The notes under the pieces were generated by a model. It made no database searches, was not told where the DNA came from, and saw nothing but the letters and a program-made list of their open reading frames with translations. Positions 376 to 14,713 of a DNA stretch of 40,131 nucleotides are shown one piece after another. Where the stretch lies: NCBI GenBank assembly GCA_038065915.1, contig JBBTPZ010000014.1:1-40131 (forward strand), read 5' to 3'. Every line of letters begins with the position of its first letter. Position 1 is the first letter of the stretch. Source of the stretch: Patescibacteria group bacterium. Lineage in GTDB: Bacteria; Patescibacteriota; Minisyncoccia; Phycocordibacterales; 21-14-all-36-13. The position numbers and the translations under genes were made by a program.

Positions 376-691
376 TTTTTTTAACACATCTATGGCATGG
401 CGTAGATTGGTGTGGAATAAATTCAAATGCTCTGACTTTTAAACCTCTTAAATGAGGTTTAAAAGAATCGTGTTAGATTTAATTCTATTTTAAGCATTTG
501 AATCCACAATGTTTTTGTTTTTATAATTTTGTCGTGTTGGTTATTTAAGATTTATTAAAAATTATACATTCCCATTGCACATAAATCTTTCAATTTTGCG
601 ACAGTTTTTTGTAACCATATCAACTTTTTTTGTTTTCCACACATTAAATTTGGAATATTAATTTTTCTGCTATAATATAGCTCTTGCATAT

Positions 692-708
692 ATACCCCCA
701 TAGGGTAT
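692..708 (+). promoter_or_regulatory. CsoR-type operator (ATACCC-N5-GGGTAT) overlapping the csoR promoter region
   Basis: The 17-nt palindrome atacccccatagggtat lies 16 nt upstream of the csoR ATG, just after a tataat hexamer at 671-676. It has the GC-core/AT-flank architecture typical of CsoR boxes. Confidence 0.7.
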
Positions 709-723
709 TATTATTTTGATAAC

Positions 724-993
724 ATGAAAAAAAATATAAAAAATAAAATTACACGCAGATTAAAGGTTTTGGAAGGACAGATAAGGGGACTTCAAAATAT
801 GATAAAGGAAGATAAATATTGTATAGATATTATTAATCAATCATCCGCCGTAAAACAAGCGTTATCAAGTGTGGAAAATTTAATTATGGAAGAGCATCTT
901 TCAACATGTGTTATTAAACAAATTAAAGACAAAAAGGAATCAAAAGCCATTAAAGAAATTTTAAACGTTTATAAATTATCAAAAAATAAATAA
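724..993 (+). CDS. csoR: CsoR/RcnR-family Cu(I)-sensing transcriptional repressor
   Basis: 89 aa. The RLKVLEGQIRGLQNMIKEDKYCIDIINQSSAV...EEHLSTCV pattern carries the C-H-C ligand set of CsoR (DUF156 fold). Confidence 0.9.
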   Translation: MKKNIKNKITRRLKVLEGQIRGLQNMIKEDKYCIDIINQSSAVKQALSSVENLIMEEHLSTCVIKQIKDKKESKAIKEILNVYKLSKNK

Positions 994-1006
994 ATTTATT
1001 ATTTTT

Positions 1007-1492
1007 ATGAAAAACAACAATATTTTTTTATGGGTTGGATTAATTATCCTTGCGTTGGTGTTGATTTTTGTCGCAAAAAACAACGGACCAACGGGAGATA
1101 ACTTTGTTAAAAGTGTTCTTATTTTGGAAGAAACATTTTGGGATTTTAAAACGATAAGTATGGCCGACGGAAATGTTAGTCATGATTTTGTATTAAAAAA
1201 TAATGGAAGCGAGCCAATCAAAATAACAAAAATACAGACAAGTTGTATGTGTACAAACGCGAATTTATTAACAAATGACGGCAAAGTCAAAGGACCGTTC
1301 GGCATGCACGAATCACCACCTGTGAATTTAGAAATCATGCCGAATGAAAGCGTTAAATTACAAGCGATTTTTGACCCGAATGCGCATGGACCGGCTGGAG
1401 TCGGAGTTATGGACAGAAGCATATACATTGATACCAATTCCTCAGAAAAACCAAAATTAGAATTAAAATTTGTAGCCAACGTAATAAAGTAA
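1007..1492 (+). CDS. Membrane-anchored DUF1573-like protein with a CMC motif
   Basis: N-terminal TM helix. WDFKTISMADGNVSHDFVLKNNGSEPIKITKIQTSCMCT matches the DUF1573 pattern (FDFG..h.F.l.N.G..PL.I..v.tSCGCT). Confidence 0.7.
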   Translation: MKNNNIFLWVGLIILALVLIFVAKNNGPTGDNFVKSVLILEETFWDFKTISMADGNVSHDFVLKNNGSEPIKITKIQTSCMCTNANLLTNDGKVKGPFGMHESPPVNLEIMPNESVKLQAIFDPNAHGPAGVGVMDRSIYIDTNSSEKPKLELKFVANVIK

Positions 1493-1495
1493 AAA

Positions 1496-2386
1496 ATGGA
1501 TATTTTATTTAGTGTATCTATAATCGCGTCATTTGTGGCTGGCATGGTAGCTTTGTTTGCTCCGTGTTGTGTGAGCATTCTTCTCCCAACATACCTGGCG
1601 GCTGTATTTAGAGAAAAAACAAAAGTTCTAAAGATGACTTTCATATATTTTTTGGGAATGGCAATCATTCTTATACCGATAGGATTGGGAGCGGCTTTTA
1701 TTACCAAATTTTTTCAAGATATTCATATTGAACTTTATATTTTGGGCGGGTTGATGATGGTTGCATTTGGAATAATGAGTTTTGCAGGCAAAGGCATGGC
1801 AATGTTGCCAAAATCACTTCAACCAAAAGCTGGCGGTTTTTCTAAAAAATCAGTGTTTATGTTAGGTGTTTTTTCAGGTGCGGCGACATCCTGTTGTGCT
1901 CCAGTTCTTGCTGGTGCCTTAACCCTAGCAGTTCTAAGCGGAACATTTGTAAAAGCGATAATTGTCGTATTTGCTTATGTCTTTGGAATGACAATACCTT
2001 TGTTTGTTATAGCTACATTCTGGGATAAATTTGACATACAAAATTCTCGTCTGGTTCGCGGAAAACTTTTTAAATTTAAATTTGGCAAAAAAATATTTTA
2101 TATTCATTCAACGAATCTAATAGCAGGAATTATTTTTTCAGTCATTGGATTAATGTTAATAACACTTGCTCTTTCAGGAAATACATTTTGGGCACCATCG
2201 GCCCAAGTAAGTTTTGGAGAATCTCTGACAAGATTTTCTACTAAAATAGTAAATGCTCTACAAATAATTCCGGATTACATATGGGGAGTGATTATTGTCG
2301 CTATTTTTGCATTTTTGTTAAGGTTTAGTTTTAATAATTTTAATAGAAATAATAAAAAACAAGAAAATGAAAATACTCAACACTAA
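1496..2386 (+). CDS. CcdA/DsbD-family thiol-disulfide transmembrane protein (cytochrome c biogenesis-type TM domain)
   Basis: Polytopic membrane protein with FAPCCVSILLPTYL and TSCCAPVLAG motifs in TM helices. Paralog of 5955..6842. Confidence 0.7.
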   Translation: MDILFSVSIIASFVAGMVALFAPCCVSILLPTYLAAVFREKTKVLKMTFIYFLGMAIILIPIGLGAAFITKFFQDIHIELYILGGLMMVAFGIMSFAGKGMAMLPKSLQPKAGGFSKKSVFMLGVFSGAATSCCAPVLAGALTLAVLSGTFVKAIIVVFAYVFGMTIPLFVIATFWDKFDIQNSRLVRGKLFKFKFGKKIFYIHSTNLIAGIIFSVIGLMLITLALSGNTFWAPSAQVSFGESLTRFSTKIVNALQIIPDYIWGVIIVAIFAFLLRFSFNNFNRNNKKQENENTQH

Positions 2387-3266
2387 AAATAAAGCGAGAT
2401 TGGCAATCTTTGCCGTTGTGCTATTTATTTTTTTTCTCGTTTCCTATTTTGACTTTGATGTAAAAATAAAAACGAGGACAGAATCTAATGTGGAAAAATT
2501 AACTCAATCTGATTATTTGCAAAAAGAAGTTTTGCCAGAAAATGGTGTGGAATTACCGGTTGTTTGGGGCGATATTGGAAAAAAGTTAACGGATTCAGGA
2601 GTGATAGATTCTAAAAAATTTGAAGGCCTCTACAACAAAAGAGGCGGGTTGGATGACGAAGAAAAATCTCTTCTGTATGCAGAAAATAACGGAAAAATTA
2701 TAATTACAAAAGAAAACTCTGGTTTCATACTGAATATTTTTTGGGCGCTTGGCCTATCCAACAAAAATTCTGTTTTAGAAAAAGGACCAATGATGAATCC
2801 TGAATATGGCGGAGCGGAGAATTTTGCTTCCACAGGCGGGTGGACAATTGCCAATGGAAATATTATGAATCATTATAGCGCGCATTCTTTTGTTGTACTC
2901 ACAAAAGAACAACAGGAACTTGTAGAAAGAGTATCCAAAAATATTTATCGTCCGTGTTGTGGAAATTCAACTTACTTTCCCGACTGCAACCACGGAATGG
3001 CGATGCTCGGACTTCTGGAATTGATGGCGTCTCAAGGCGTGAGTGAACAGGATATGTATAAAATAGCTCTTCAGGTTAATTCGTTTTGGTTTCCCGGTAC
3101 ATATTTAACAATAGCTAAATATTTTGGAATGAGAAATGTAGAATGGAAAGATATTAATCCAAAAGAAGTGTTGGGAGAAATTTATTCAAGCGGTCAAGGA
3201 TACAAACGAATTCTTCAAGAATTAGAACCGGAAAAAATTCAAGGTGGTGGAGGATGCTCCGCTTAA
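2367..3266 (+). CDS. Membrane-anchored extracytoplasmic Cys/His-motif protein (RPCCGNSTYFPDCNHGMAM), paralog A; function unknown, putative metal/thiol chemistry
   Basis: N-terminal TM helix and a conserved C-terminal domain shared with 3314..4300. Ends in GGGGCSA. I cannot name the family. Confidence 0.75.
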   Translation: MKILNTKNKARLAIFAVVLFIFFLVSYFDFDVKIKTRTESNVEKLTQSDYLQKEVLPENGVELPVVWGDIGKKLTDSGVIDSKKFEGLYNKRGGLDDEEKSLLYAENNGKIIITKENSGFILNIFWALGLSNKNSVLEKGPMMNPEYGGAENFASTGGWTIANGNIMNHYSAHSFVVLTKEQQELVERVSKNIYRPCCGNSTYFPDCNHGMAMLGLLELMASQGVSEQDMYKIALQVNSFWFPGTYLTIAKYFGMRNVEWKDINPKEVLGEIYSSGQGYKRILQELEPEKIQGGGGCSA

Positions 3267-3313
3267 TAATATTAATTGTTAAATAAAAATTTGATATTAG
3301 CAATTAAAAAATC

Positions 3314-4300
3314 ATGACGATAGATGACCAAAACAACGAAGATTTTTCCAACAAGAAAGTATCATCGCAAACTAACGTTACGGACAAGCGTAATTTTGCG
3401 CTTTCTGTGAGTATTGTTATTACTGCTCTAATTTTAGGGTTTGCGTGGATTTATACTGTAAAGCTCAAAATATCATTGCAAGCCAAGAATCAAATAGAAA
3501 CGGAAACACAATTGTCAGTTGAAGAAGCAATTGAATTGCCTTTGCGTTGGGATAATCTCGGAGTGCAAATGATTGATGCAGGCGTAATTAATCAAGAAGC
3601 ATTTGAGTCAATTTATGCACAGCGCGGAGGTTTGGACTCTCAAGAAAAACAACTTCTTCTTGGCAAATCCAACGGCACTATAAAAATTAATCAACAAAAT
3701 GCCGGCTTTTTTCTAAATTTTCTTTGGGCATTTGGGCTAAGCAACAAAAATTCAATTCTTGAAAATGGCCCCATGATGGACCCACAATATGGCGGAACGG
3801 AGAATTTTGCTTCCACAGGCGGGTGGACAATTGCCAATGGAAATATTATGAATCATTATAGCGCGCATTCTTTTGTTGTACTCACAAAAGAACAACAGGA
3901 ACTTGTAGAAAGAGTATCCAAAAATATTTATCGTCCGTGTTGTGGAAATTCAACTTACTTTCCCGACTGCAATCACGGAATGGCGATGCTCGGACTTTTG
4001 GAACTTTTAGCCGCACAGGGAATTGATGAACAAACTATTTACAAAGTAGCGCTTGAAGTAAATAAACTTTGGTTTCCCGAACAATACAATGTCATTACGC
4101 AATATTTATTGAATAACAATAAAAATATTGAAAATATTAATCCTAGAGAGATTTTGGGAATAAATTATTCCAGCGCTTCGGGGTATGGTCGAATTTTACA
4201 ATCCGTCGGCCCCCAACCTTCAAAAGATAGTGTTAATTGTAGTATCGGGGGAGAAAGCACGGCTCCAGCTCAATCAAGTGGCAGTGGTTGCGGAATTTAA
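3314..4300 (+). CDS. Membrane-anchored extracytoplasmic Cys/His-motif protein, paralog B
   Basis: Same architecture and motif as 2367..3266. Cys-containing tail (VNCSIGG...SGSGCGI). Confidence 0.75.
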   Translation: MTIDDQNNEDFSNKKVSSQTNVTDKRNFALSVSIVITALILGFAWIYTVKLKISLQAKNQIETETQLSVEEAIELPLRWDNLGVQMIDAGVINQEAFESIYAQRGGLDSQEKQLLLGKSNGTIKINQQNAGFFLNFLWAFGLSNKNSILENGPMMDPQYGGTENFASTGGWTIANGNIMNHYSAHSFVVLTKEQQELVERVSKNIYRPCCGNSTYFPDCNHGMAMLGLLELLAAQGIDEQTIYKVALEVNKLWFPEQYNVITQYLLNNNKNIENINPREILGINYSSASGYGRILQSVGPQPSKDSVNCSIGGESTAPAQSSGSGCGI

Positions 4301-4315
4301 TGATAAAAATCATTT

Positions 4316-4750
4316 ATGATTCTTAAATCTACAATTTATGGTCTTATAGGAACAACAGTTTTACTCACTGTATTTTTTTCTTTTGTCAGTCTTATTTCCG
4401 GTTGGGATTTTGCTTTGAGTCAGTTTTTGCAATTCTGGTATTTTATTGTTAGTTTGGCGGTTGGTTTTGGCATACAAATCGGTCTTTATACTTATTTAAA
4501 AAATGCCATTCATAAATCAGAATCATCGGGCAGAATACTCGCAGTATCGGGAACAACATCTACGGGCGCTATGATATCATGTTGTGCGCATTATATTGCA
4601 AATATTCTACCGATTGTTGGTGTTACCGGATTTATAAGTGTCATAGGACAATATCAAATTGAACTTTTCTGGATTGGACTCATTTTTAATATTGCGGGAA
4701 TTATTTATATCGGGAGAAAAGTAATTTCATTTCATAGGTCACAAATGTAA
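4316..4750 (+). CDS. Small polytopic membrane protein with an intramembrane CCAH motif
   Basis: 144 aa, about 4 hydrophobic helices, with GAMISCCAHYIANILP. Tightly packed inside the csoR unit. Confidence 0.6.
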   Translation: MILKSTIYGLIGTTVLLTVFFSFVSLISGWDFALSQFLQFWYFIVSLAVGFGIQIGLYTYLKNAIHKSESSGRILAVSGTTSTGAMISCCAHYIANILPIVGVTGFISVIGQYQIELFWIGLIFNIAGIIYIGRKVISFHRSQM

Positions 4751-4796
4751 AATTAGTTGGAACATTTTATTTAATTACAAAATAAGTAAAAAATTT

Positions 4797-5291
4797 ATGG
4801 ATAATATTGAAAAAAATTCAATTTTTGACAACAAGAAAAACAAATTGTTTTTAGTTATTTTTAGTGTTATTGGAATTATTATTGTAGTTATTCTTGCAAA
4901 TAGATTTTTAATTGATAAAAACGATGATGTCAAAAATGAAAACAATTCAATTTCCGTTTCATCGGTTATTTCTTCAGGAACACAAACTAACAACGAAGGC
5001 GCAGTAACAGTTAAAGTAACCCCAAATTTGTCGGATTGGAGTTTTGAAGTGACTCTTGATACCCATTCTGTGAGCATTAATAAAGATTTAACGAAAGTTT
5101 CTATTCTTATTGACGAGAACAAAAATGAATATATGCCAATTATATGGGACGGTGATTCCTCCGATGGTCATCACCGCACCGGTATTCTTCGTTTTGGCAA
5201 AATTATACCAATACCCAAGTCGGTTACCTTGGTAATTCGTCAAATCGGTGATATAGCTGAAAGAAAGTTTTTGTGGACAATCAATCCTTGA
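4797..5291 (+). CDS. Membrane-anchored secreted protein with a DGHHRTG His motif (unknown family)
   Basis: N-terminal TM helix, a beta-rich C-terminal domain and GDSSDGHHRTGILRF. Last gene before the second CsoR box. Confidence 0.6.
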   Translation: MDNIEKNSIFDNKKNKLFLVIFSVIGIIIVVILANRFLIDKNDDVKNENNSISVSSVISSGTQTNNEGAVTVKVTPNLSDWSFEVTLDTHSVSINKDLTKVSILIDENKNEYMPIIWDGDSSDGHHRTGILRFGKIIPIPKSVTLVIRQIGDIAERKFLWTINP

Positions 5292-5296
5292 CCAGA

Positions 5297-5313
5297 ATAC
5301 CCCAGGGGGGTAT
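5297..5313 (+). promoter_or_regulatory. Second CsoR-type operator (ATACCCC-N3-GGGGTAT)
   Basis: The 17-nt palindrome ataccccaggggggtat has the same length and arms as 692-708. It sits 6 nt after the stop of 4797..5291 and 67 nt before the small ORF at 5380. Confidence 0.65.
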
Positions 5314-5379
5314 TATAGATATAGAGATAAATAAAATAATAGAAAGTCGAGTTTAATAATAAATAATCAACAATATCTA

Positions 5380-5556
5380 ATGTTTAACTTTTTTAAGAAA
5401 AAATGTCCTGTTTGTAAAACGGGACTTGAGGAAGGGAAAAATTATCCCGAAGGATTTGGTGAAAAATTTTGTTCAGAAAATTGTAAAGAAGAGTATGGAA
5501 AGCAGTTAGCCCAAAAACCATCGCAACATTCTCATGGTGGTGGATGTTGTCATTAA
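5380..5556 (+). CDS. Small Cys-rich metal-binding protein (TRASH/YHS-like zinc-ribbon pattern plus a C-terminal HSHGGGCCH tail); absent from the ORF track
   Basis: My own translation: MFNFFKKKCPVCKTGLEEGKNYPEGFGEKFCSENCKEEYGKQLAQKPSQHSHGGGCCH (58 aa). The CPVC...FCSENC spacing resembles the TRASH domain. It lies directly downstream of a CsoR box. Confidence 0.6.
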   Translation: MFNFFKKKCPVCKTGLEEGKNYPEGFGEKFCSENCKEEYGKQLAQKPSQHSHGGGCCH

Positions 5557-5671
5557 AAAAACGAAGTCCCGTATCAAAGCGAAGCTTCTGGTGCGGTGGG
5601 TCGACCCCAGTAGTAGAGCAAAGCTCACTGCGGGGCAAGAAAATTAATAATCAGCTTTAACTAAAAATTAT

Positions 5672-5760
5672 ATGAACCCCGTTAAAAATTTAGTAAATTA
5701 ACTTAACAGGGTTATATAAATAAATTTATTATGACTACACAAATTTCTAACGGGGTGAAT
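5672..5760 (+). repeat. uORF/inverted-repeat element, copy 1
   Basis: The arms 5676-5689 (accccgttaaaaat) and 5743-5756 (atttctaacggggt) pair over 14 bp with 1 mismatch. The uORF at 5672-5701 encodes MNPVKNLVN. A GTG at 5755-5757 lies in the 3' arm. Confidence 0.7.
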
Positions 5761-5955
5761 CAAAATTTAGGGAAATTAGATAGAATTTTTAGATTTGTCT
5801 TGGGAATATTATGGCTTAGTCCGATGGCGCCACAATTTGGCACAGAGTGGGCCAACATAATTATCGTTATCGTGGCGTTGATCGCACTTCTTGAGAGTTT
5901 TCTTGGTTGGTGTTGGCTTCATCGTTTGTTTGGCATAGATAATAATAATCAGTAA
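5731..5955 (+). CDS. DUF2892 (YgaP-like) small membrane protein
   Basis: The NLGKLDRIFRFVLGIL...LESFLGWCWLHRLFGI pattern is typical of DUF2892. The true start may be the GTG at 5755 rather than the ATG at 5731. The stop overlaps the next ATG (TAATG). Confidence 0.65.
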   Translation: MTTQISNGVNQNLGKLDRIFRFVLGILWLSPMAPQFGTEWANIIIVIVALIALLESFLGWCWLHRLFGIDNNNQ

Positions 5956-6842
5956 TGGAATTACTTTTAAGCGCATCATTAATCGCGGCATTCATTGCCG
6001 GAATTGCGGCGCTCTTTGCCCCGTGTTGTATCACTGTTCTTTTGCCCGCCTATTTCGGTTCCATATTTCGTGAAAGATACAAAGTGTTTTTAATGACTTT
6101 TATATTTTTCTTGGGAATTCTTACAGTATTTCTTCCCATTGGTCTTGGAGTCGCCGCGCTAGGGAAATTATTCAGCCAATATCATAATATTATTTTCGGC
6201 ATAGGAAGCACATTTCTTACTATTCTTGGAATTTTTCTTCTCACCGGTATTCATTTTTCTTTACCAATGAGAGTAAGCCCTGCCCTCAAGAAACACAATG
6301 CTGTTTCTGTATTTGTGCTTGGTATATTTTCAGGAATTGCCACTACTTGTTGCGCACCAGTGCTAGCTGGTGTCTTGGCTCTCGCAACTCTTCCGAGCTC
6401 AATATTTTGGGGTGGTTTTTATACTTTAAGTTTTGTTCTTGGAATGGTCGCGCCACTCTTTATTATATCTCTTTTCCTTGACAAGATTAACTTTGAACAA
6501 AAATTTCTACGAATCTTCAGTAGACCGATTCGATACCGATTAATCGGCAAAGAAATAAGTATTACCGTTTCCGAAGCAGTATAGGGCATTACTTTTCTTG
6601 CCATGGGCGTTTTGATTTTTTATCTTGCGCTTACTAATCGGCTTTTTATGCAAGCCGGAGGATATCAGACAGATATTAATATTTATCTCACAAAAGTTTT
6701 GCAATCAATAAGCGGTGTTGTGCAAGCGGTTCCCGAATATGTCTGGGCGCTTTTGTTAGTTATAATTATTAGCGGAATTGTTTGGCGGGTTGCTCGTCAA
6801 TTCAACAAAGAAAAACAAGAAGAAAAAATAACAAAAAGTTGA
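5955..6842 (+). pseudogene. Second CcdA-like gene interrupted by a single in-frame TAG (fragments 5955..6584 and 6603..6842)
   Basis: The two track ORFs are in the same frame. Together they align end to end with the 296-aa paralog 1496..2386 (FAPCCITVLLPAYF, TTCCAPVLAG, ...IPDYIWG/VPEYVWA). The TAG at 6582-6584 replaces one codon. Confidence 0.6.
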
Positions 6843-6872
6843 TAATTATTAATAATTTTATAAAATAAAATC

Positions 6873-6960
6873 ATGAACCCCGTTAGAAATCTAATAAATT
6901 AATTTGACGGGACGCATAATCTAATAAATTTATGAATACACAAATTTCTAACGGGATGAA
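6873..6960 (+). repeat. uORF/inverted-repeat element, copy 2
   Basis: The arms 6879-6890 (cccgttagaaat) and 6944-6955 (atttctaacggg) form 12 perfect bp. The uORF at 6873-6902 encodes MNPVRNLIN. An ATG at 6956 follows the 3' arm immediately. Confidence 0.7.
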
Positions 6961-7585
6961 AAAAATAAATGTCTCTACAATTATTATAACAATAGTTGTT
7001 GTCGTCATAATAGGTCTTCTGATTTGGAATGACAGTAAGAATAAAATTAGTACGCCAGTAGCGGATGAACATGGAATGCCTATTGTTACAAACACTCCCG
7101 TTATACCACTTGATGAACTGATTAATAAACCTACACCGGATTTTGCTTTAGCCGACAGAGATGGGAAAATATATTCCTCGAACGAATTGCAAGGCAAGAA
7201 TGTGATACTCTTTTTTAATGAAGGATTGATGTGTTATCCCGCATGTTGGAATCAAATTGTTTCACTTTCTCAAGATGAGCGTTTAAAAAATGACAACACC
7301 GTGGTCCTTTCAGTTGTGATTGATTCCAAAGAAGATTGGCAACAAGCGATTAATAAGATGCCTGAACTTGCCAAAGCGACAGTAGTTTTTGATAAAGATG
7401 CAGAAGTATCTAAAAAATTCAACATGCTTAAAACTTCATCCTCAATGCATTACGGTTCACTTCCGGGTCATACTTATGTAATAATTGATAAAGAAGGAAT
7501 GGTCAGACATGTTTTTGATGACCCTAATATGAGCATTCACAATGACCAATTAGTTGCAGAAATTTCAAAATTTTCCAAAAAATAA
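6932..7585 (+). CDS. Membrane-anchored thioredoxin-fold (AhpC/TSA-redoxin-like) protein with a CYPAC motif
   Basis: TM helix, then PDFALADRDGKIYSSNELQGKNVILFFNEGLMCYPACW. The likely real start is the ATG at 6956 (MKKINVST...). Confidence 0.7.
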   Translation: MNTQISNGMKKINVSTIIITIVVVVIIGLLIWNDSKNKISTPVADEHGMPIVTNTPVIPLDELINKPTPDFALADRDGKIYSSNELQGKNVILFFNEGLMCYPACWNQIVSLSQDERLKNDNTVVLSVVIDSKEDWQQAINKMPELAKATVVFDKDAEVSKKFNMLKTSSSMHYGSLPGHTYVIIDKEGMVRHVFDDPNMSIHNDQLVAEISKFSKK

Positions 7586-7737
7586 TACTGATGGCAATAT
7601 ATTGTAAAAGCCATATCAGTGTTAAATAAAAAAGGTCGAAGAATAAAAATTTAATTCCAAAGGGGAATTTACCCCGCGTGATAAAAACTCTCGGATTTTA
7701 TGATATCTAAAACATCATATTTCACGAGATAAAAATT

Positions 7738-8034
7738 ATGAATAATGAAAAACATTATTGTCAAATAAATAAAAATGGTTTTGCATTAGCGGCTGGAGGA
7801 GCAATGGGAACCATTTATATTGTTTGTGCTGTATTTGTGTCTTTGTGGCCAGATTTTTCACTAAAACTTTTTGGTTGGCTTGTTCATTTAGTGAATGTAG
7901 AAAAATTTACCGGTGGTTTGGTGATGACGTTCGGCGGATTTTTGATAGGTTTGGCGCAAGTTGTTATTTATGCTTATATCGGAGCATGGATTATTGCTTG
8001 GTTTCACAACAAATTCTGCAAATCAAATCAATAA
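7738..8034 (+). CDS. Small integral membrane protein, unknown function
   Basis: 98 aa with 2-3 hydrophobic helices. The overlapping track ORF 7824..8054 is in another frame and Cys/Arg-rich, so it is rejected. Confidence 0.55.
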   Translation: MNNEKHYCQINKNGFALAAGGAMGTIYIVCAVFVSLWPDFSLKLFGWLVHLVNVEKFTGGLVMTFGGFLIGLAQVVIYAYIGAWIIAWFHNKFCKSNQ

Positions 8035-8056
8035 AAATTAATAAACAGATATAAAT

Positions 8057-8755
8057 ATGCAATATGCTTGGCTTATTTGGGGTCTTATACTTTTGGTTGT
8101 ATGGACCACTGTCTATCTTTCTTTGGAAAGTAGAGAAAGCAAAAAAAGGATGTTAATAGTCAGTATTTGGACTTCACTTCTTGGCTTGACCGAACCTTTG
8201 TTTGTTCCCGAATATTGGAGTCCACCCTCGCTCTTTGATTTAGCTTCAAAAACAGGATTTGACATAGAAAGTTTAATTTTTGCCTTTGGTATAGGAGGAA
8301 TTGTTGTTATTTTATACGAGCGCATCTTTCGCGCAGAGCATGAAAAAATTTCAACATTGAGTCAACACTCTTCTCGCCATCGGTATCATCTCTTGGCAAT
8401 TTTATCTGCGCCGATTGTATTTCTTTTACTTATGTTAACGACACAACTTAATCCAATTTATATATCTGTTATTGCTCTTGTCTTCGGAGGATTTGCAACC
8501 TGGTATTGTCGGCCTGACCTCAAGAAAAAAATGATTGTGAGTGCTTTTATTTTTCTTGTTATCTATTTCGTCTACTTTTTAACTCTGATTGTCTTTTATC
8601 CGGGATATGTTGAACAAGTTTGGCGACTTGATGTCATCTCTGGAATTCTAATTGTAGGCATACCGCTGGAAGAACTTCTGTTTGCTATTAGTTTTGGTTT
8701 TTTTTGGTCTAGCATATATGAACATCTGACTTGGCGTAAAATTAAAAATCTTTAA
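8057..8755 (+). CDS. Polytopic membrane protein, possibly lycopene-cyclase-domain family
   Basis: 232 aa with about 7 TM helices. Two PxE(E/Y) motifs (TEPLFVPEYW, GIPLEELLF) resemble CrtYc/d-type domains. Assignment is from memory only. Confidence 0.4.
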   Translation: MQYAWLIWGLILLVVWTTVYLSLESRESKKRMLIVSIWTSLLGLTEPLFVPEYWSPPSLFDLASKTGFDIESLIFAFGIGGIVVILYERIFRAEHEKISTLSQHSSRHRYHLLAILSAPIVFLLLMLTTQLNPIYISVIALVFGGFATWYCRPDLKKKMIVSAFIFLVIYFVYFLTLIVFYPGYVEQVWRLDVISGILIVGIPLEELLFAISFGFFWSSIYEHLTWRKIKNL

Positions 8756-8757
8756 AT

Positions 8758-8950
8758 ATGAACCCCGTTAGAAATCACACAGTTAATAAAATCATGGGAA
8801 AAAGCAGAGTGTTATATATTAAAAGGTCATTATTTATTAAAAAATTATGGATTGAAAAGTCCAAAAAAGGATTAAAAACTAGCACAACTCTTTAAAATCT
8901 CATTTAGAGATTTTAAAGTTAGGACTTTTCAATTTCTAACGGTGTGAAAA
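8758..8950 (+). repeat. uORF/inverted-repeat element, copy 3 (expanded)
   Basis: The arms 8765-8775 and 8932-8942 form 11 perfect bp. The uORF starts MNPVRN but runs 45 codons (8758-8895). An extra internal hairpin is ctttaaaatctc/gagattttaaag. The cfa GTG at 8944 abuts the 3' arm. Confidence 0.65.
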
Positions 8951-10137
8951 AAGAAAAACAAATTATTGAATCATTGTTAGTTGGTACGGGAATTACAATA
9001 AATGGAACTAATCCGTATGACCCTCAAATACACAATGAAAATTTTTATAATCGTGTGATGAAAGAAGGGTCGTTGGGACTCGGTGAGTCGTATATGGATG
9101 GCTGGTGGGATTGTAAAAATCTTGACCAATTTTTTCATAAAGTTCTTGAAGCTGAACTTGATAAAAAAATCAAGAAAAATTTTAGCATACTGTTTTCACT
9201 TGCGTGGAATTATGTTTTAAATCCTGGTAGAAAATCAAAGGCATTTGAAATAGGAAAAAAACATTATGATATCGGAAATGATTTGTATCGTGCCATGCTT
9301 GATAAGCGTTTGACATATACCTGTAGCTATTGGAATTCGCCACATGGAGAAGCAAAAAATCTCAACGAAGCGCAAGAGGCGAAACTAGATTTGGTCTGTA
9401 AAAAAATTGGAATCAAACCAGGACAAAAAGTACTTGATATTGGTTCTGGTTGGGGAAGTTTTATTGGTTATGCTTCTGAAAAATACAGCGCACACGCGTT
9501 AGGAGTTACTGTTTCAAAAGAGCAAAAAGAATTGGCTGATAAATTGTATGAAAATTTTTCTGTTGAGACCCGACTTCAAGATTATCGTGACATCAATGAC
9601 CCTCCCTCGCATAAAACTGCCTCCTTCACAGAAGTGGCTACGAAGGCCGAGTTGGAAGGGCAAAGAAAATTTGACCATATCGTATCTTTAGGGATGTTTG
9701 AACATGTTGGATATAAAAATTATCGCGCTTTTATGAAAGTTGTTCACAGCACTCTTAAAGATAATGGTTTGTTTTTATTACACACAATTGGTAGTAATCT
9801 TTCGATGAGGGGGACTGACCCATGGATTGAGAAATATATTTTCCCTAATAGTATGATTCCTTCAATAAAACAAATTGGAAAATCAATTGAAGGATTGTTC
9901 GTGATGGAAGATTGGCACAATTTCAGCGCAGATTATGATAAGACACTTATGGCGTGGCATAAAAACTTTGAAAATAATTGGGACAAAATAAAATCAAATT
10001 ACGACGAAAAATTTTACCGAATGTGGAGATATTATTTACTCTCGTGTGCTGGATCATTCCGTGCAAGAAAAAATCAATTGTGGCAAATTGTGTTATCAAA
10101 AAAAGGAGTTCCTGGAGGGTATAAATTAATCAGATGA
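8944..10137 (+). CDS. cfa: Cyclopropane-fatty-acyl-phospholipid synthase
   Basis: Collinear with E. coli Cfa as I remember it (VLDIGSGWG, QDYRD...FDHIVSLGMFEHVG, DPWIEKYIFPN, EDWHNFSADYDKTLMAWH). GTG start. Carries a 22-aa extra segment. Confidence 0.9.
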   Translation: MKKEKQIIESLLVGTGITINGTNPYDPQIHNENFYNRVMKEGSLGLGESYMDGWWDCKNLDQFFHKVLEAELDKKIKKNFSILFSLAWNYVLNPGRKSKAFEIGKKHYDIGNDLYRAMLDKRLTYTCSYWNSPHGEAKNLNEAQEAKLDLVCKKIGIKPGQKVLDIGSGWGSFIGYASEKYSAHALGVTVSKEQKELADKLYENFSVETRLQDYRDINDPPSHKTASFTEVATKAELEGQRKFDHIVSLGMFEHVGYKNYRAFMKVVHSTLKDNGLFLLHTIGSNLSMRGTDPWIEKYIFPNSMIPSIKQIGKSIEGLFVMEDWHNFSADYDKTLMAWHKNFENNWDKIKSNYDEKFYRMWRYYLLSCAGSFRARKNQLWQIVLSKKGVPGGYKLIR

Positions 10138-10161
10138 CATAATAAAATAACGAGGAATAAA

Positions 10162-12729
10162 ATGAAAAAAGAAAATTTTAAAATACAAGGAATGCATTGC
10201 GCCAGTTGTGTGGGAACGATAGAAAAAGCGTTGTTAAAAACAGTTGGGGTGCATTCTGCTTCTGTTAATTTTGCTACAGAATCAGCGCTCGTTGAATTTG
10301 ATGAAAATATAATTTCTGAAAAAAATCTTGCAAAAACAGTTGATTCTATCGGTTATCATCTTGATGTAGATAAAGGCAATCCTGATGATAAAAAAAATCA
10401 AACGATACAGACCTTAAATAATGAAGAAACAAAGTTGGTTTCATTAAAAATAATTGGAATGGACTCGCCTCATTGCGCAATGGTTGTTGAAAATGCTTTA
10501 AAAAAACTTGAAGGAGTAAAAAATATTGATGTAGATTTTCCAAACCAAAGAGCTCGGATTGTTTTTAATTCATTAATTCTGCGTATTGATACTATTTTGG
10601 AAGTAATCATAGATGCCGGCTACAAACCGATAATTGAGAGCGAAGAAAAAGAAGAAATGATGGATAGAGAAAAAATTGAAAGACAGAAACAAATTAAAAT
10701 TTTAAAAACCAAACTCTTAATAGGCGGTATTCTTTCCATACTGATATTTTTGGGAAGTTTTTCTGATTGGTTTTCTTTTGTACCCGAAATTTTAAGCAAT
10801 AACTGGGCTCTTCTTGTTCTTACTACCCCTGTGCAATTTTGGGTGGGATGGCAATTTTATAGCGGATTAAAACTTCTTATAAAATATCACACCGCCGATA
10901 TGAACACATTGATAGCAATCGGGACTTTGGCGGCATATTTTTATAGCGCGTTTATTACGATATTTCCAACATTTTTTTTAATTGATGGAATAATACCACC
11001 TGTATATTTTGATGTCTCTGCAATCGTGATTACGCTTATTCTTCTTGGTAAATATTTTGAGGTATTGATGAAGAGCAGAGCGAATGAGGCAATCAGAAAA
11101 CTTATCGGTTTACAGCCAAAAACGGCGAAGGTTGTTAGAAACGATAAAGAAATTGAAATATTAATTTCAGAAGTTATGGTCGGAGATTTAATTATTGTCA
11201 GACCGGGTGAAAAAATTCCAGTTGATGGAGAAATTACAGAAGGAAATTCAGATGTGGACGAATCAATGATAACTGGGGAATCAATGCCTGTTTATAAAAC
11301 TGCCGGCGGTGTTGTAATTGGGAGTACAATAAATAAATTTGGTACTTTTACTTTCCGCGCAACTAAAATAGGCAAGGACACAATTTTATCCCAGATTATT
11401 AAAATGATAGAAGAAGCGCAAGGGTCAAAAGCTCCAATCCAACGACTTGCCGACAAGGTTTCTTCTTATTTTGTTCCTGTAGTAATTGTTATAGCTATTT
11501 TAACTTTCATAGTATGGTACTTTTTTGGTCCTATACCTTCAATCAATTTTGCTCTGATTAATTTTGTTGCAGTTTTGATAATTGCTTGCCCATGTGCATT
11601 GGGACTTGCGACACCCATGGCGATAATGGTTTCTTCCGGCAGTGCAGCAACAAAAGGAATTTTGATTAAGGATGCTTCTTCTCTTGAAATAGCTAATAAA
11701 ATAGATACAGTTGTTTTAGATAAAACGGGGACACTAACAAAAGGAGAACCAAAGTTGACGAATATAATTTTTTTTGGTGATGAAAGAAAAGAAGACGATA
11801 TTAACGCTGATTTATTAAAAATAGATAAACAAACATACAATAATAAATTTATAAAAGAAATTTTGCAGTATGCTTCAAGTTTAGACCAAAAGTCATCACA
11901 TCCACTTGATAAAGCAATTATAAGCGAAGCTAAAAAAGAAAATTTAAATCTTTACAAATTGGAAGAATTTGAATCAATTCCCGGAAAAGGTTTACACGGT
12001 TTTCTTATTGTTAATAATCTTAAAACAGAAGCGTGGTTGGGCAACAGGACTCTTATGAAGGATGTCGGAATTAATTTTTCTTCTTATGAAGATAAGATTA
12101 GAGATTTGGAGAATAATGGCAAGACCGTGATAATTCTTGCTGTGGGCAAAAAAATTACTGGTGCTTTAGCAGTAGCTGACACTTTGAAAGAAAAATCAAA
12201 AGATGCAGTCGCATTGTTAAAAAATAAAGGAATAGATGTTTGGATGATAACAGGCGATAATGATTTAACAGCCAGGGCGATTGCTCATCAAGTCGGAATA
12301 GAAAATATTATTAGTGGAGTTTTACCAGACCAAAAGTCAAAGAAGATTAAAGAGCTTCAGGAACAAGGAAAAATTGTAGCCATGGTTGGTGATGGAATAA
12401 ATGATGCGCCTGCATTAACACAAGCAAATGTAGGAATAGCTATGGGCGAAGGAACAGATATAGCAATGGAATCTGCCAATATTACTTTAATGAGAGGCGA
12501 CCTAACTCTTGTTGCGGATACAATTGATATCTCCAGAAAAACTATAAGAATAATAAAACAGAATTTATTCTGGGCATTCTTTTATAACGCTGCTTTCATT
12601 CCAGTCGCCGCAGGTGTTTTATATCCTATATTTGGAATTTTATTGAACCCAATATTTGCAGGAGTGGCGATGGCTTTAAGCAGTATTAGTGTAGTTTTAA
12701 ATTCGTTAAGATTAAAAAAGGTCGAATAA
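10162..12729 (+). CDS. copA: Copper-translocating P1B-type ATPase
   Basis: Two N-terminal HMA domains (GMHCASC; the second is atypical, GMDSPHCAM), a CPC motif ([11 protein letters not shown]), DKTGTLT and GDGINDAP. Confidence 0.95.
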
Positions 12730-12765
12730 ATGAAAAAGCAATTAAAATTTAAAATCTCTGGGAAT

Positions 12766-12843
12766 TTAAATGCTCTAAATGAGCATTTGAATCCATAATT
12801 ATTTTTTTGTATTATGCTCCATGGGAGCATTTGAATCCATAAT
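12766..12843 (+). repeat. Two tandem copies of the 'hairpin + GAGCATTTGAATCCATAAT' intergenic motif
   Basis: The 19-mer at 12781-12799 is identical to that at 12825-12843, and each closes a hairpin (aaatgctc/gagcattt; atgctcc/ggagcat). Related copies lie at 493-510, 13432-13448, 40089-40097 and 40122-40131. Confidence 0.7.
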
Positions 12844-12888
12844 ATCTTTGTGAAAGTTTTTTTATCAATAATATGAAGTAAAAATTTT

Positions 12889-13143
12889 ATGAAAAAATTA
12901 ATATTATATCTTTATCCAATATTGTTTTTTATTCCAAGTGTCGTTTTAGCAGATGGTAGATATATGATGGATTTTGATTCCGTGGGCGGATATGGAGGAT
13001 GGGGAGGATGGGGAGGATGGGGAGGCATGATGGGTGGCGGTGGTTTTTTCTGGTCGCTGTTTATGGTACTTATTCCGGTCGTATGGTTAATTGTCGGAAT
13101 ACTGGCAATCATCTGGCTTTGGGAGAAAATAAACAAGAAATAA
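12889..13143 (+). CDS. Small secreted/membrane-anchored Gly-Trp-Met-rich protein
   Basis: Signal peptide (..SVVLA/DG), then YGGWGGWGGWGGMMGGGG encoded by a 9-bp tandem repeat (ggaggatgg x3 plus a partial copy, 12994-13029), then a C-terminal TM helix. Confidence 0.55.
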   Translation: MKKLILYLYPILFFIPSVVLADGRYMMDFDSVGGYGGWGGWGGWGGMMGGGGFFWSLFMVLIPVVWLIVGILAIIWLWEKINKK

Positions 13144-13181
13144 AAACTAAAAGTTAATTGAACTCCAAAAGGAGAAAAAAT

Positions 13182-13391
13182 ATGAAATATTCAACAATTG
13201 TACACGGCGCCTCCATTATATTTGGAATTTGGGGCGGTCTAGCGCTGGTGGGTGCTTGGCTTGCCGGGGATGGCGGAAATTTTTGGGGATTTTCTCAACA
13301 GCATTTTTATAATGATGCAATAGTGTTACAACTCATCGCTATTTCTGCCGGCATTTGTACTTTAATCCGTCGTCAGTTAGAGCAAAAATAA
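13182..13391 (+). CDS. Small membrane protein (69 aa), unknown function
   Basis: The ATG at 13182 follows aaggag by 7 nt. The track start at 13158 is a non-ATG extension. Two hydrophobic helices. Confidence 0.5.
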   Translation: MKYSTIVHGASIIFGIWGGLALVGAWLAGDGGNFWGFSQQHFYNDAIVLQLIAISAGICTLIRRQLEQK

Positions 13392-14421: not shown

Positions 14422-14485
14422 AAAAATAGGGAGTTGTCTGGTGGTAGACAACGACTATATTTTTCTTAACCCCGCCCTTTTATTT

Positions 14486-14713
14486 ATGTATTATGTGTAT
14501 GTTATAAAAAGAAATAATAAATTTTATTTTGGTTTCTCGAAAGATTTAAAGAGAAGATTTAAACAGCATGCAAAAAATTATTCTTGCGAAATGGTGTATT
14601 ATGAAGCTTACGCGACAGAAAAGTTAGCGCGTAATAGGGAAATAAAATTAAAAGAATATGATGGAGCTTGGCGCTCATTACGAAAACGTTTAAATATAAA
14701 AAGGGCGGGGTGA
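14486..14713 (+). CDS. Small GIY-YIG nuclease-family protein (UPF0213-like)
   Basis: MYYVYVIKRNNKFYFGFSKDLKRRFKQH...ARNREIKLK matches the GIY-YIG pattern. The ATG at 14486 is preferred over the GTG at 14441. Confidence 0.75.
   Translation: MYYVYVIKRNNKFYFGFSKDLKRRFKQHAKNYSCEMVYYEAYATEKLARNREIKLKEYDGAWRSLRKRLNIKRAG

Follow-up and report, generated by a model that had tools for sequence, protein, structure and literature searches.

The 40-kb stretch of DNA analyzed here (hereafter the window; 32.8% G+C) comes from an ultra-small groundwater bacterium of the Patescibacteria and contains an island of ∼12.7 kb, positions 692-13391, in which two palindromic operators precede genes for the repressor CsoR, the ATPase CopA and a series of envelope proteins with conserved cysteine and histidine motifs. 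We propose that it is a copper island under the control of CsoR, in which efflux by CopA is coupled to a new extracytoplasmic machinery for capturing or relaying Cu(I), which would be kept reduced by CcdA-type transporters, and we give this reading a little better than an even chance. Both the regulation and the functional association of the genes rest on sequence and comparative evidence, by which the island is to be regarded as a conserved, modular feature of Patescibacteria. An earlier note, made from the DNA letters alone, had suggested a candidate undescribed copper- or thiol-handling system at this site, and the operators, the synteny and the gene fusions presented below support this suggestion. 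We found no description of the cluster in a literature search that omitted most subscription journals; the study of the source aquifer mentions, of the copper genes in these organisms, only the presence of copA (PMC8672522). The accessory machinery of this copper-stress regulon consists of uncharacterized families, one of which has no solved structural relative.

Two operators of the copper type lie within predicted promoters

Two perfect ATACCC-N5-GGGTAT palindromes of 17 nt, each ahead of a string of genes, had been reported in the earlier note, and both were recovered with 0 mismatches: box 1, ATACCCCCATAGGGTAT, at 692-708 and box 2, ATACCCCAGGGGGGTAT, at 5297-5313. Each lies in a predicted promoter (Table 1), where it fills the spacer and overlaps the –10 element, the classic position for a repressor. 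Promoter 2 scored 10/12 in the consensus scan, and box 1 is separated from the csoR start by 15 nt. Control of the whole second unit by box 2 is presumed; copA has no box of its own, and a structured GC-rich element and a promoter-like site follow the first gene of the unit.

Written as half-sites, box 1 is TAC-CCCCATAGG-GTA and box 2 is TAC-CCCAGGGGG-GTA, both around C/G tracts. The type-2 operator of Streptomyces lividans CsoR (consensus ATATACCCCTNAGGGGTATAT) is a G-tract pseudopalindrome with a TAC-N9-GTA inverted repeat, and any base swap in TAC or GTA abolishes binding (PMC3902906). With their TAC-N9-GTA repeats, both boxes, which the earlier note had called CsoR boxes, are predicted type-2 CsoR operators. 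Within the window, a search allowing up to two mismatches returned three matches against 0.5 expected, there was no further perfect box, and a relaxed TACC-N7-GGTA search gave no credible extra site and none upstream of cfa or copA.

The motif recurs in related loci. In 1.16 Mb of these, ATACC-N7-GGTAT occurs 32 times, compared with 1.36 occurrences in shuffled sequences (rounded, 1.4 expected), which is a ∼24-fold enrichment. Of these boxes, 22 are located 3-21 nt (mostly 9-14 nt) upstream of a csoR start, just after TTGAC, and the 22 loci share one layout: TTGAC, 3-5 nt, the box, and a –10 element overlapping its 3′ arm. Additional boxes precede cfa or copA in three loci (L012, L031 and L074; loci are numbered with the prefix L), which suggests that a two-operator design is normal for the island. 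In most loci among the window (708-724) and the 22 relatives, the csoR start codon follows the operator and –10 element by 9-15 nt, and this short gap suggests that the csoR mRNA is leaderless or nearly so.

CsoR contains Y32, C33, H58, C62 and E78, that is, the Cu(I) ligand set (a C-H-C triad) and the Y/E second shell. The spacings of 25, 4 and 45 are identical to those in Mycobacterium tuberculosis CsoR, whose counterparts we take to be Y35, C36, H61, C65 and E81. CopA combines a P-type core and an N-terminal HMA domain with a CxxC motif (GMHCASC, residues 10-16), a transmembrane (TM) CPC (476-478, within ACPCALG, 475-481), YN (FFYNAAF) and M-x-x-SS (MALSSIS), a set of motifs that we take to be the P1B-1 Cu(I) signature. 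By these motifs, regulator and pump are of the copper type, and the core of CsoR, operator and CopA is of the textbook CsoR-CopA kind.

The island genes recur around copA and csoR in other species

Two paralogous proteins of the island belong to one family, to which we give the working name FAM, taking the 2367-3266 product as its reference. When species-representative genomes were scanned for FAM, at least 587 stretches were confirmed; the best 80 loci were all from metagenome-assembled genomes (MAGs) of Patescibacteria or from MAGs labelled only "bacterium". We mapped the window proteins onto 83 non-redundant loci and defined a full-flank set of 26 loci from other species, each flanked by 8 kb or more on either side. 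Since these are MAG loci, often on short contigs, all co-occurrence figures are lower bounds.

In the full-flank set, copA lies within 10 kb of FAM and on the same strand in 88% of the loci, DUF1573 in 81%, csoR in 50% and CcdA in 46%; CCAH and DGHHR, two families described below, follow with 35% each, DUF5676 and the lycopene-cyclase-domain protein with 31% each, and the redoxin with 23%. All but one of the loci (25/26) contain copA or csoR, and island genes are always found on the FAM strand. A random 20-kb span of a ∼1-Mb genome with one or two copA genes would, by our reckoning, include copA only a few percent of the time. The synteny in relatives on which the earlier suggestion depended is thus found.

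At shorter range (up to 3 kb from FAM), DUF1573 is present in 59 of the 83 loci, CcdA together with the redoxin in nine and CcdA alone in three. A DUF1573 or CcdA(+redoxin) gene is consequently no more than 3 kb away from 71 of the 83 FAM genes, and in 12 loci none of the three is present. DUF1573 and redoxin occur together within this distance in none of the 83 loci, and this exclusivity suggests that the CxC and CxxC proteins are alternative partners. The recurring sub-modules are DUF1573-(CcdA)-FAM, CCAH-DGHHR, CcdA-redoxin, DUF5676-lycopene-cyclase-domain and box-csoR-copA, and the island is a mosaic of them, in orders that differ between species. Three deep branches of the FAM family (L090, L091 and L092) likewise adjoin csoR or a copper-type ATPase. 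The gene order is csoR-ATPase-long-form FAM-cupredoxin in L090 and ATPase-long-form FAM-cupredoxin-rhodanese-ferric-reductase-like in L092 (for the long form, see below).

FAM is a large and conserved family of Patescibacteria

Neither FAM paralog matches a Pfam or NCBIfam family, and a member-by-member Pfam scan of the family alignment gave no consistent family. Among 8,000 candidates scored, 7,466 are homologues at E ≤ 1e-3; all of them are "hypothetical" and without a Pfam domain and, where named, come from Patescibacteria/Parcubacteria lineages. Searching 1.84 billion representatives with a hidden Markov model of FAM gave 710 clusters at 50% identity. Conservation is high, with ∼57-62% identity across class-level groups. 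The invariant features are FASTGGW, the motif R-P-C-C-x-N-x4-F-x-D-C-N-H-G and a Gly-rich C-terminus ending in C-G-V, C-G-I or C-S-A. Of 270 sequences, 259 contain CC-x8-C-x-H, and of the 248 complete ones, 243 have a cysteine among the last six residues. Both paralogs of the window carry RPCCGNSTYFPDCNHG.

A confident AlphaFold2 model of FAM (predicted local distance difference test, pLDDT, 87.2; predicted template modelling score 0.81) consists of a single TM helix at the N-terminus followed by a domain that is mostly helical, with the last five residues disordered. A Foldseek comparison of this model with the PDB returned noise only (best E 1.1, TM-score ≤ 0.2), and the FAM profile found nothing at E ≤ 10 among PDB sequences. 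As modelled, FAM is a domain without a solved structural relative, the structural comparison covering the PDB only; it lacks a CxxC motif, and its fold is neither that of thioredoxin nor a cupredoxin or OB fold. The paralogs thus fall outside any characterized family by Pfam, NCBIfam, PDB sequence and structural matches, which was the test set beforehand for the earlier note.

A tract of 175 bp is 100% identical between the two FAM genes (2815-2989 and 3798-3972) and spans FASTGGW to the RPCCGNSTYFPDC core, with 50-65% DNA identity elsewhere. This identity suggests that the genes underwent gene conversion recently, although an assembly collapse is possible as well.

Gene fusions tie the CCAH and FAM domains to metal handling

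The CCAH family comprises about 2,000 homologues with an invariant T-S-T-x-A-M-x-S-C-C-x-H-Y in the third helix. No Pfam family was found for it, including in a scan of all members of the alignment, and the window protein and 20 homologues gave no match at E ≤ 0.1 to Pfam MerT, MerC or MerF. The AlphaFold2 model has four helices (pLDDT 73.6); its Foldseek comparison with the PDB was uninformative, returning only generic helical bundles and designed proteins.

In two homologues a metal-binding domain is N-terminal to CCAH, HMBD in P0316 and YHS in P0381; both are cytoplasmic metal-binding modules of heavy-metal ATPases. In a third, P0137, a CCAH domain (37% identity, BLASTP E 2e-25) is followed by one TM helix and a FAM domain, and the gene is part of the order copZ-copA-DUF2933-fusion-DsbD_TM-redoxin (L091). 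The three fusions (CCAH::FAM, HMBD::CCAH and YHS::CCAH) provide a link to metal that is independent of gene neighborhood. At the same place, a different N-terminal 4-TM domain bearing G-C-P-x-C-G is found in at least 16 clusters of FAM, which we call the long form. With hhalign, CCAH and this domain aligned colinearly, CC over CPxC, with weak scores (probability 23-53%; E 2e-5 global, 9e-4 local); homology of the two membrane domains is suggested by this alignment, not established.

The fusions also bear on topology. With HMBD or YHS in the cytoplasm, followed by four TM helices and, in the CCAH::FAM fusion, by one more, the FAM domain would be placed outside the cell. The positive-inside bias favors an N-in orientation for DUF1573, DGHHR and the redoxin, and weakly for FAM.

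The DGHHR gene lies directly 3′ of CCAH in 17 of 18 loci holding both. Its product scores 18.1 bits for DUF5643, below the cut-off of 34, and 10 of 16 homologues show weak matches to DUF5643 (best E 2.5e-5), making a distant relationship possible. Against PDB sequences, the DGHHR profile gave chance matches only. The homologue in L062 (265 aa) carries a C-terminal rhodanese domain, and the rhodanese and ferric-reductase-like genes after long-form FAM and cupredoxin in L092 (9576-11948) are joined by one for a NAD_binding_1 protein. This fusion and these neighbors hint at a connection with the transfer of sulfur or with that of electrons across the membrane.

The redox components include an unusual type of CcdA

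The DUF1573 protein reads SCMCT at its conserved site, SCxC being conserved at ≥90% in 66 sequences; against PDB sequences it gave chance matches only. Selenocysteine forms of DUF1573 (UGC) exist elsewhere (PMC9312934), which argues that the CxC site is chemically active.

Both CcdA-like proteins show the DsbD_TM fold above the cut-off and consist of the TM core only, with no extra Pfam domain. Canonical CcdA has one cysteine per site. Here, CC is found at both canonical sites (FAPCC in TM1 and T[ST]CCAPVLAG in TM4), as it is in all 25 homologues for which both sites were recovered (loci L004-L081), and this CC type looks like an unreported DsbD_TM subfamily. The ccdA1 gene overlaps FAM paralog A by 20 nt and neighbors only FAM and the DUF1573 (CxC) protein; ccdA2 is followed by the CYPAC redoxin. 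Vicinal CC pairs occur in five island proteins: FAM-A, FAM-B, CCAH, the two CcdA proteins (taken together as a single type) and the mini-protein described below. A role of CcdA in cytochrome c maturation was ruled out, no heme-handling genes being nearby.

The second CcdA gene is interrupted by an in-frame TAG, which splits the frame into ORFs of 209 and 79 aa, the ORF at 6603-6842 being the C-terminal part. Homologues elsewhere are single proteins of ∼285 aa. The split is called in four independent assemblies of the same population and is thus not an error of the window. The TAG may reflect a nonsense mutation, read-through or a gene that is split, and the CcdA2-redoxin arm may be impaired here.

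Further genes of the island

All genes and Cys/His motifs listed in the earlier note are present, and its family calls hold in Pfam (Table 1). Its list for the second unit needs two refinements: the "two membrane proteins" are a DUF5676 and a lycopene-cyclase-domain protein, and the second CcdA gene is broken by the TAG. Eight ORFs have no Pfam or NCBIfam family (2367-3266, 3314-4300, 4316-4750, 4797-5291, 5380-5556, 6603-6842, 12889-13143 and 13158-13391).

Table 1. Features of the copper island, with positions in the window
Feature	Position	Strand	Characteristics
Promoter 1 with CsoR operator	684-711	+	–35 TTGCAT 684-689, 16-nt spacer, –10 TATTAT 706-711
csoR, predicted Cu(I)-sensing repressor, 89 aa	724-993	+	PF02583 E 7e-25, 87.6 bits (cut-off 22.8)
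DUF1573 (Ig-like), membrane-anchored, S-C-x-C	1007-1492	+	PF07610 E 3e-14, 53.1 bits (cut-off 26.1)
CcdA-like DsbD_TM protein 1, 296 aa	1496-2386	+	PF02683 E 5e-11; FAPCC in TM1, TSCCAP in TM4
FAM paralog A	2367-3266	+	N-terminal TM anchor, ~250-aa domain, FASTGGW, RPCC-x8-C-x-H, C-terminal GGGGCSA arm
FAM paralog B	3314-4300	+	56% identical to A; C-terminal SGSGCGI
CCAH, four-helix membrane protein	4316-4750	+	Invariant TST-AM-SCC-HY in helix 3; SCCAHY here
DGHHR protein	4797-5291	+	TM anchor and ~110-aa domain; invariant T89, H90, G124, H125, H126; no Cys
Promoter 2 with CsoR operator	5288-5316	+	–35 TTGACC 5288-5293, 17-nt spacer, –10 TATTAT 5311-5316
58-aa Cys4 mini-protein	5380-5556	+	C-x2-C-x18-C-x3-C, tail HSHGGGCCH
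GC-rich two-hairpin element	5562-5635	+	59.5% GC; minimum free energy –34.8 kcal/mol, z = –5.0; without U-tract
DUF2892 / YgaP-like TM protein	5731-5955	+	PF11127 E 1e-11
CcdA-like DsbD_TM protein 2, ~288 aa	5955-6842	+	PF02683 E 6e-10; FAPCC, TTCCAP; in-frame TAG 6582-6584
TlpA/ResA-like redoxin, membrane-anchored, invariant C-Y-P-A-C	6932-7585	+	AhpC-TSA 1e-17, Redoxin 1e-14
DUF5676 two-TM protein	7738-8034	+	PF18926 1.5e-15
Lycopene-cyclase-domain membrane protein	8057-8755	+	PF18916 2e-18
cfa, cyclopropane-fatty-acyl-phospholipid synthase	8944-10137	+	CMAS 1e-81
copA, predicted P1B-1 Cu(I)-exporting ATPase	10162-12729	+	E1-E2_ATPase, Hydrolase, 2 HMA domains
Small secreted or membrane protein, Gly/Trp/Met-rich	12889-13143	+	ORF translation
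Small two-TM protein, membership weak	13158-13391	+	Found in only 1-2 other loci

The Cys4 mini-protein had been called TRASH-like, a description that only its cysteine spacing would suggest. The spacing is C-x2-C-x18-C-x3-C, the TRASH/YHS pattern being C-x2-C-x19-22-C-x3-C; the protein gave no Pfam YHS/TRASH match at E ≤ 0.1 and only weak zinc-ribbon matches (E 0.009-0.07). Homologues are found in eight loci, and in L003 a YHS/TRASH protein takes a comparable place. The mini-protein is likely a cytoplasmic metallochaperone. The two-hairpin element lies between its gene and a promoter-like site at 5703-5732; it had no match in Rfam and was found only in contigs of the same population.

DUF5676 shares its locus with a homologue of the lycopene-cyclase-domain protein in 6 of the 11 loci holding DUF5676, and the latter protein is 62% identical in Harrisonbacteria (L003). 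In L012, L018 and L019, cfa lies immediately 5′ of copA, as it does in the window. The protein encoded at 12889-13143 begins with a signal-like segment and also contains a GGYGGWGGWGGWGGMMGGGG stretch and, at its C-terminus, a TM helix; the TM part alone is conserved after copA in L004 and L005, and the Met/Trp-rich stretch could bind Cu(I).

A proposed route for Cu(I) and its alternatives

We propose that a rise in cytoplasmic Cu(I) would cause CsoR to leave the two operators, opening both promoters. CopA would pump Cu(I) out, probably fed by the Cys4/CCH mini-protein. At the outer face of the single membrane, exported and external Cu(I) would be taken up by the anchored FAM, DGHHR and DUF1573 proteins, the cysteine on the flexible Gly-rich arm of FAM handing the metal to its CC/C/H site. 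CCAH, with its intramembrane CC-x-H, and FAM may act as a metal-passing or metal-holding unit, with DGHHR and DUF1573 as outside partners. Two CcdA-type transporters, one of them working with the CYPAC redoxin, would move reducing power across the membrane and so keep the exposed cysteines of FAM and its companions, and of other surface proteins, reduced despite copper-catalyzed oxidation. In this scheme we infer that FAM lies outside, that FAM, CCAH and DGHHR bind Cu(I), in which direction the metal passes and how far the second transcript extends. That metal is handled, and not redox equivalents alone, is indicated by the fusions of CCAH to HMBD and YHS, by the conserved histidines beside the cysteine motifs of FAM and CCAH and by DGHHR, with three invariant histidines and no cysteine. 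Thiol protection or Cu(I) sequestration, the function suggested in the earlier note, is a hypothesis.

A bolder proposal, which we make tentatively and rate well below an even chance, is that FAM and the CCAH domain constitute a previously unknown, Patescibacteria-specific copper machine that passes Cu(I) without ATP or accepts it from CopA. An intramembrane CC-x-H or C-P-x-C site and the extracytoplasmic CC-x8-C-x-H site, bridged by a swinging Cys arm, would then form a route across or away from the membrane, kept active by the unusual CC-type CcdA.

Several observations weigh against a copper relay under CsoR control. FAM conserves only four cysteines and one histidine, so that sequestration of large capacity is unlikely, and its positive-inside signal is weak (39/77). 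CcdA (46%) and CCAH and DGHHR (35%) appear to be accessories, not obligate partners, by their frequency near FAM. The vicinal CC pairs of CcdA and the CxC and CxxC partners fit a pure thiol-disulfide relay equally well. Regarding transcription, copA has no operator of its own in the window, the nearest being ∼4.9 kb away, and the structured element at 5562-5635 and the promoter-like site at 5703-5732 lie between box 2 and the later genes. With no box of its own, copA would depend here on transcription from 5297 across the two-hairpin element and past the promoter-like site.

The main rival explanation is thiol repair alone, as in the Scs systems. The proteins of uncharacterized families would then handle no copper, and FAM would be a thiol-disulfide oxidoreductase or isomerase of new fold, its C-terminal Cys arm serving as a shuttle cysteine as in Erv/Ero-type enzymes. 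Driven by CcdA, and in partnership with DUF1573 (CxC) or the CYPAC redoxin, it would reduce or reshuffle surface disulfides misformed by copper. The two DsbD_TM genes and the TlpA-like redoxin of the island speak for this, as do the near-exclusive DUF1573 and redoxin neighbors of FAM (59 and 9 loci within 3 kb, none with both), the existence of Sec-containing DUF1573 proteins and the precedent of the copper-induced Scs of Salmonella (PMC10907172). It leaves no place, however, for the Cys-free, His-rich DGHHR in a thiol relay. Nor does it account for the invariant histidine adjoining the cysteine motifs, for the fusions of CCAH to HMBD, YHS and FAM, or for a FAM protein without thioredoxin fold and CxxC that is tied more tightly to copA (88%) than to CcdA (46%). 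Taken as a whole, we judge this explanation rather unlikely. Less probable again is a role in cuproprotein maturation or copper acquisition, with FAM, DUF1573 and DGHHR as Sco/PCuAC/CopC-like chaperones that load extracytoplasmic cuproproteins, copper supplied by the CopA-type ATPase, and CcdA and the TlpA-like redoxin reducing the target cysteines as in CuA assembly. Pairing of a TlpA-like redoxin with CcdA does serve ScoI/CoxB reduction, and cupredoxin/COX2-like genes follow long-form FAM in L090 and L092; but cupredoxin-fold proteins are also detoxification chaperones, for example CupA of Streptococcus pneumoniae. The matches of the DUF1573 protein to PCuAC (E 0.063) and of the redoxin to SCO1 (E 0.091) are far below the Pfam thresholds, neither the island nor most of the 83 loci hold a cuproenzyme gene, and CsoR de-represses at high Cu(I), the opposite of what acquisition needs. 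We therefore regard this role as improbable.

Another thiophilic target, be it Ag(I), Hg(II), Cd(II) or reactive sulfur species, would explain the vicinal CC pairs in five island proteins, which resemble those of MerT, MerF and MerA. Persulfide chemistry in particular is suggested by the YgaP-like TM protein and by the rhodanese domains fused to a DGHHR homologue and encoded beside long-form FAM, and part of the CsoR superfamily senses persulfides (PMC8643695). Against these points stand an operator of copper type, an ATPase with the P1B-1 Cu(I)/Ag(I) signature, and a Pfam/NCBIfam search in which no MerA, MerR, MerT or MerP family was matched. The CsoR of the window also has the complete Cu(I) C-H-C triad, including the histidine that the persulfide-sensing CstR lacks. 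A target of this kind is quite improbable, and a Mer-type mercury system was ruled out by the lack of Mer families and the copper-type CsoR. Finally, the genes in question could be housekeeping envelope genes that happen to lie between csoR and copA, with a fortuitous second palindrome. Chance adjacency would fit the small, densely packed genomes of this group, the single strand on which all window genes lie and the lack of a box at copA itself. It is contradicted by the recurrence of the modules around csoR/copA in varying order in dozens of species and in three deep family branches, and by the box, enriched ∼24-fold and in its second copy exactly in promoter register, and is very improbable.

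Relation to known copper and thiol systems

The core of the proposed copper-relay island resembles the CsoR-CopZ-CopA operons of Gram-positive bacteria (Bacillus subtilis, S. lividans, Listeria monocytogenes, Staphylococcus aureus) in its Cu(I)-sensing CsoR with C-H-C, its autoregulated csoR, its type-2 G-tract TAC-N9-GTA operator overlapping the promoter, its P1B-1 ATPase with HMA, and a small cytoplasmic protein, rich in cysteine, where the chaperone would be. In contrast to these operons, a further 15 genes are found under the two operators or downstream of them, copA is ∼4.9 kb from the nearest operator, and the chaperone candidate is a Cys4/CCH mini-protein instead of the HMA-fold CopZ.

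With the Scs proteins (ScsB, ScsC, ScsD) and CueP of Salmonella, Proteus and Caulobacter (PMC10907172), the island would share a copper-induced supply of reductant to cysteine proteins of the envelope, which bind Cu(I) or restore thiols damaged by copper, within one stress response that includes CopA efflux and a Cys-containing periplasmic copper binder. Homology is limited to the DsbD_TM core and the TlpA-like redoxin. A member of the Scs group has an ScsB with periplasmic N- and C-terminal domains and a DsbA/DsbG-like CxxC ScsC, whereas the CcdA proteins of the island lack the periplasmic domains of ScsB and carry vicinal CC pairs, and its redoxin belongs to the AhpC/TSA-Redoxin type and does not resemble DsbA. 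Neither ScsC nor CueP is related to FAM, DUF1573, CCAH or DGHHR, the probable clients here; CsoR stands in place of CueR/CpxR, and the envelope has a single membrane. In our analysis the island may thus work like Scs without being a member of it.

The likeness to mercury resistance proteins is one of logic only. As in MerT, MerC and MerF, a small helical membrane protein has a vicinal or close Cys pair within a helix that would pass a thiophilic metal, and as in MerA, a flexible terminal Cys arm would hand metal to a buried Cys site; there is no sequence or Pfam relation, direction and metal differ, and the island has no reductase. CopG (DUF411, CxCC), CopL, CupA and CusF-type proteins are, as is proposed for FAM, extracytoplasmic or membrane-anchored accessory proteins of cop systems that bind copper through few Cys, His or Met residues, whereas FAM is mostly helical and has no Pfam match to thioredoxin, cupredoxin or OB-fold families.

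Patescibacteria make up a large share of bacterial diversity and have tiny genomes, yet a function has been assigned to only a minority of their conserved proteins. Here, at least three families without a function (FAM with >7,400 members, CCAH with ∼2,000, and DGHHR) are tied to copper by three independent lines, operator, synteny and gene fusion, which bears on what receives Cu(I) on the outer side of CopA in single-membrane cells and on how exposed cysteines survive copper stress. If the FAM/CCAH machine existed, it would add a fourth kind of device for copper resistance in bacteria to P-type ATPases, resistance-nodulation-division (RND)/CusF systems and multicopper oxidases, and would give a function to >7,000 conserved hypothetical proteins, one of the larger unannotated families in these organisms. 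A very reduced genome that devotes ∼12.7 kb to the island points to copper as a major stress in the organism's groundwater or host-attached life.

Other observations in the window

Upstream of the island, positions 1-340 are GC-rich non-coding DNA with long hairpin-forming inverted repeats, for example GCCGAGGCAAAGCGGAAA...TTTCCGCTTTGCCGAG. A comparison with Rfam gave only chance matches resembling microRNAs, and the region may be an element similar to repetitive extragenic palindromes or miniature inverted-repeat transposable elements.

In L086 (contig_4896, 685,866 nt), which comes from the same organism, copA is found in five pieces and cfa and pheS in two each. Such fragmentation is typical of uncorrected long-read frameshifts, so that gene calls from this locus should not be trusted.

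Downstream of the island, a 90-aa ORF with a weak GIY-YIG match (14441-14713) lies between pheS and pheT. The PheT beta subunit (14751-17114, 787 aa) contains an NlpC/P60 domain between B3_4 and B5, according to the Pfam list of the identical genes in L087.

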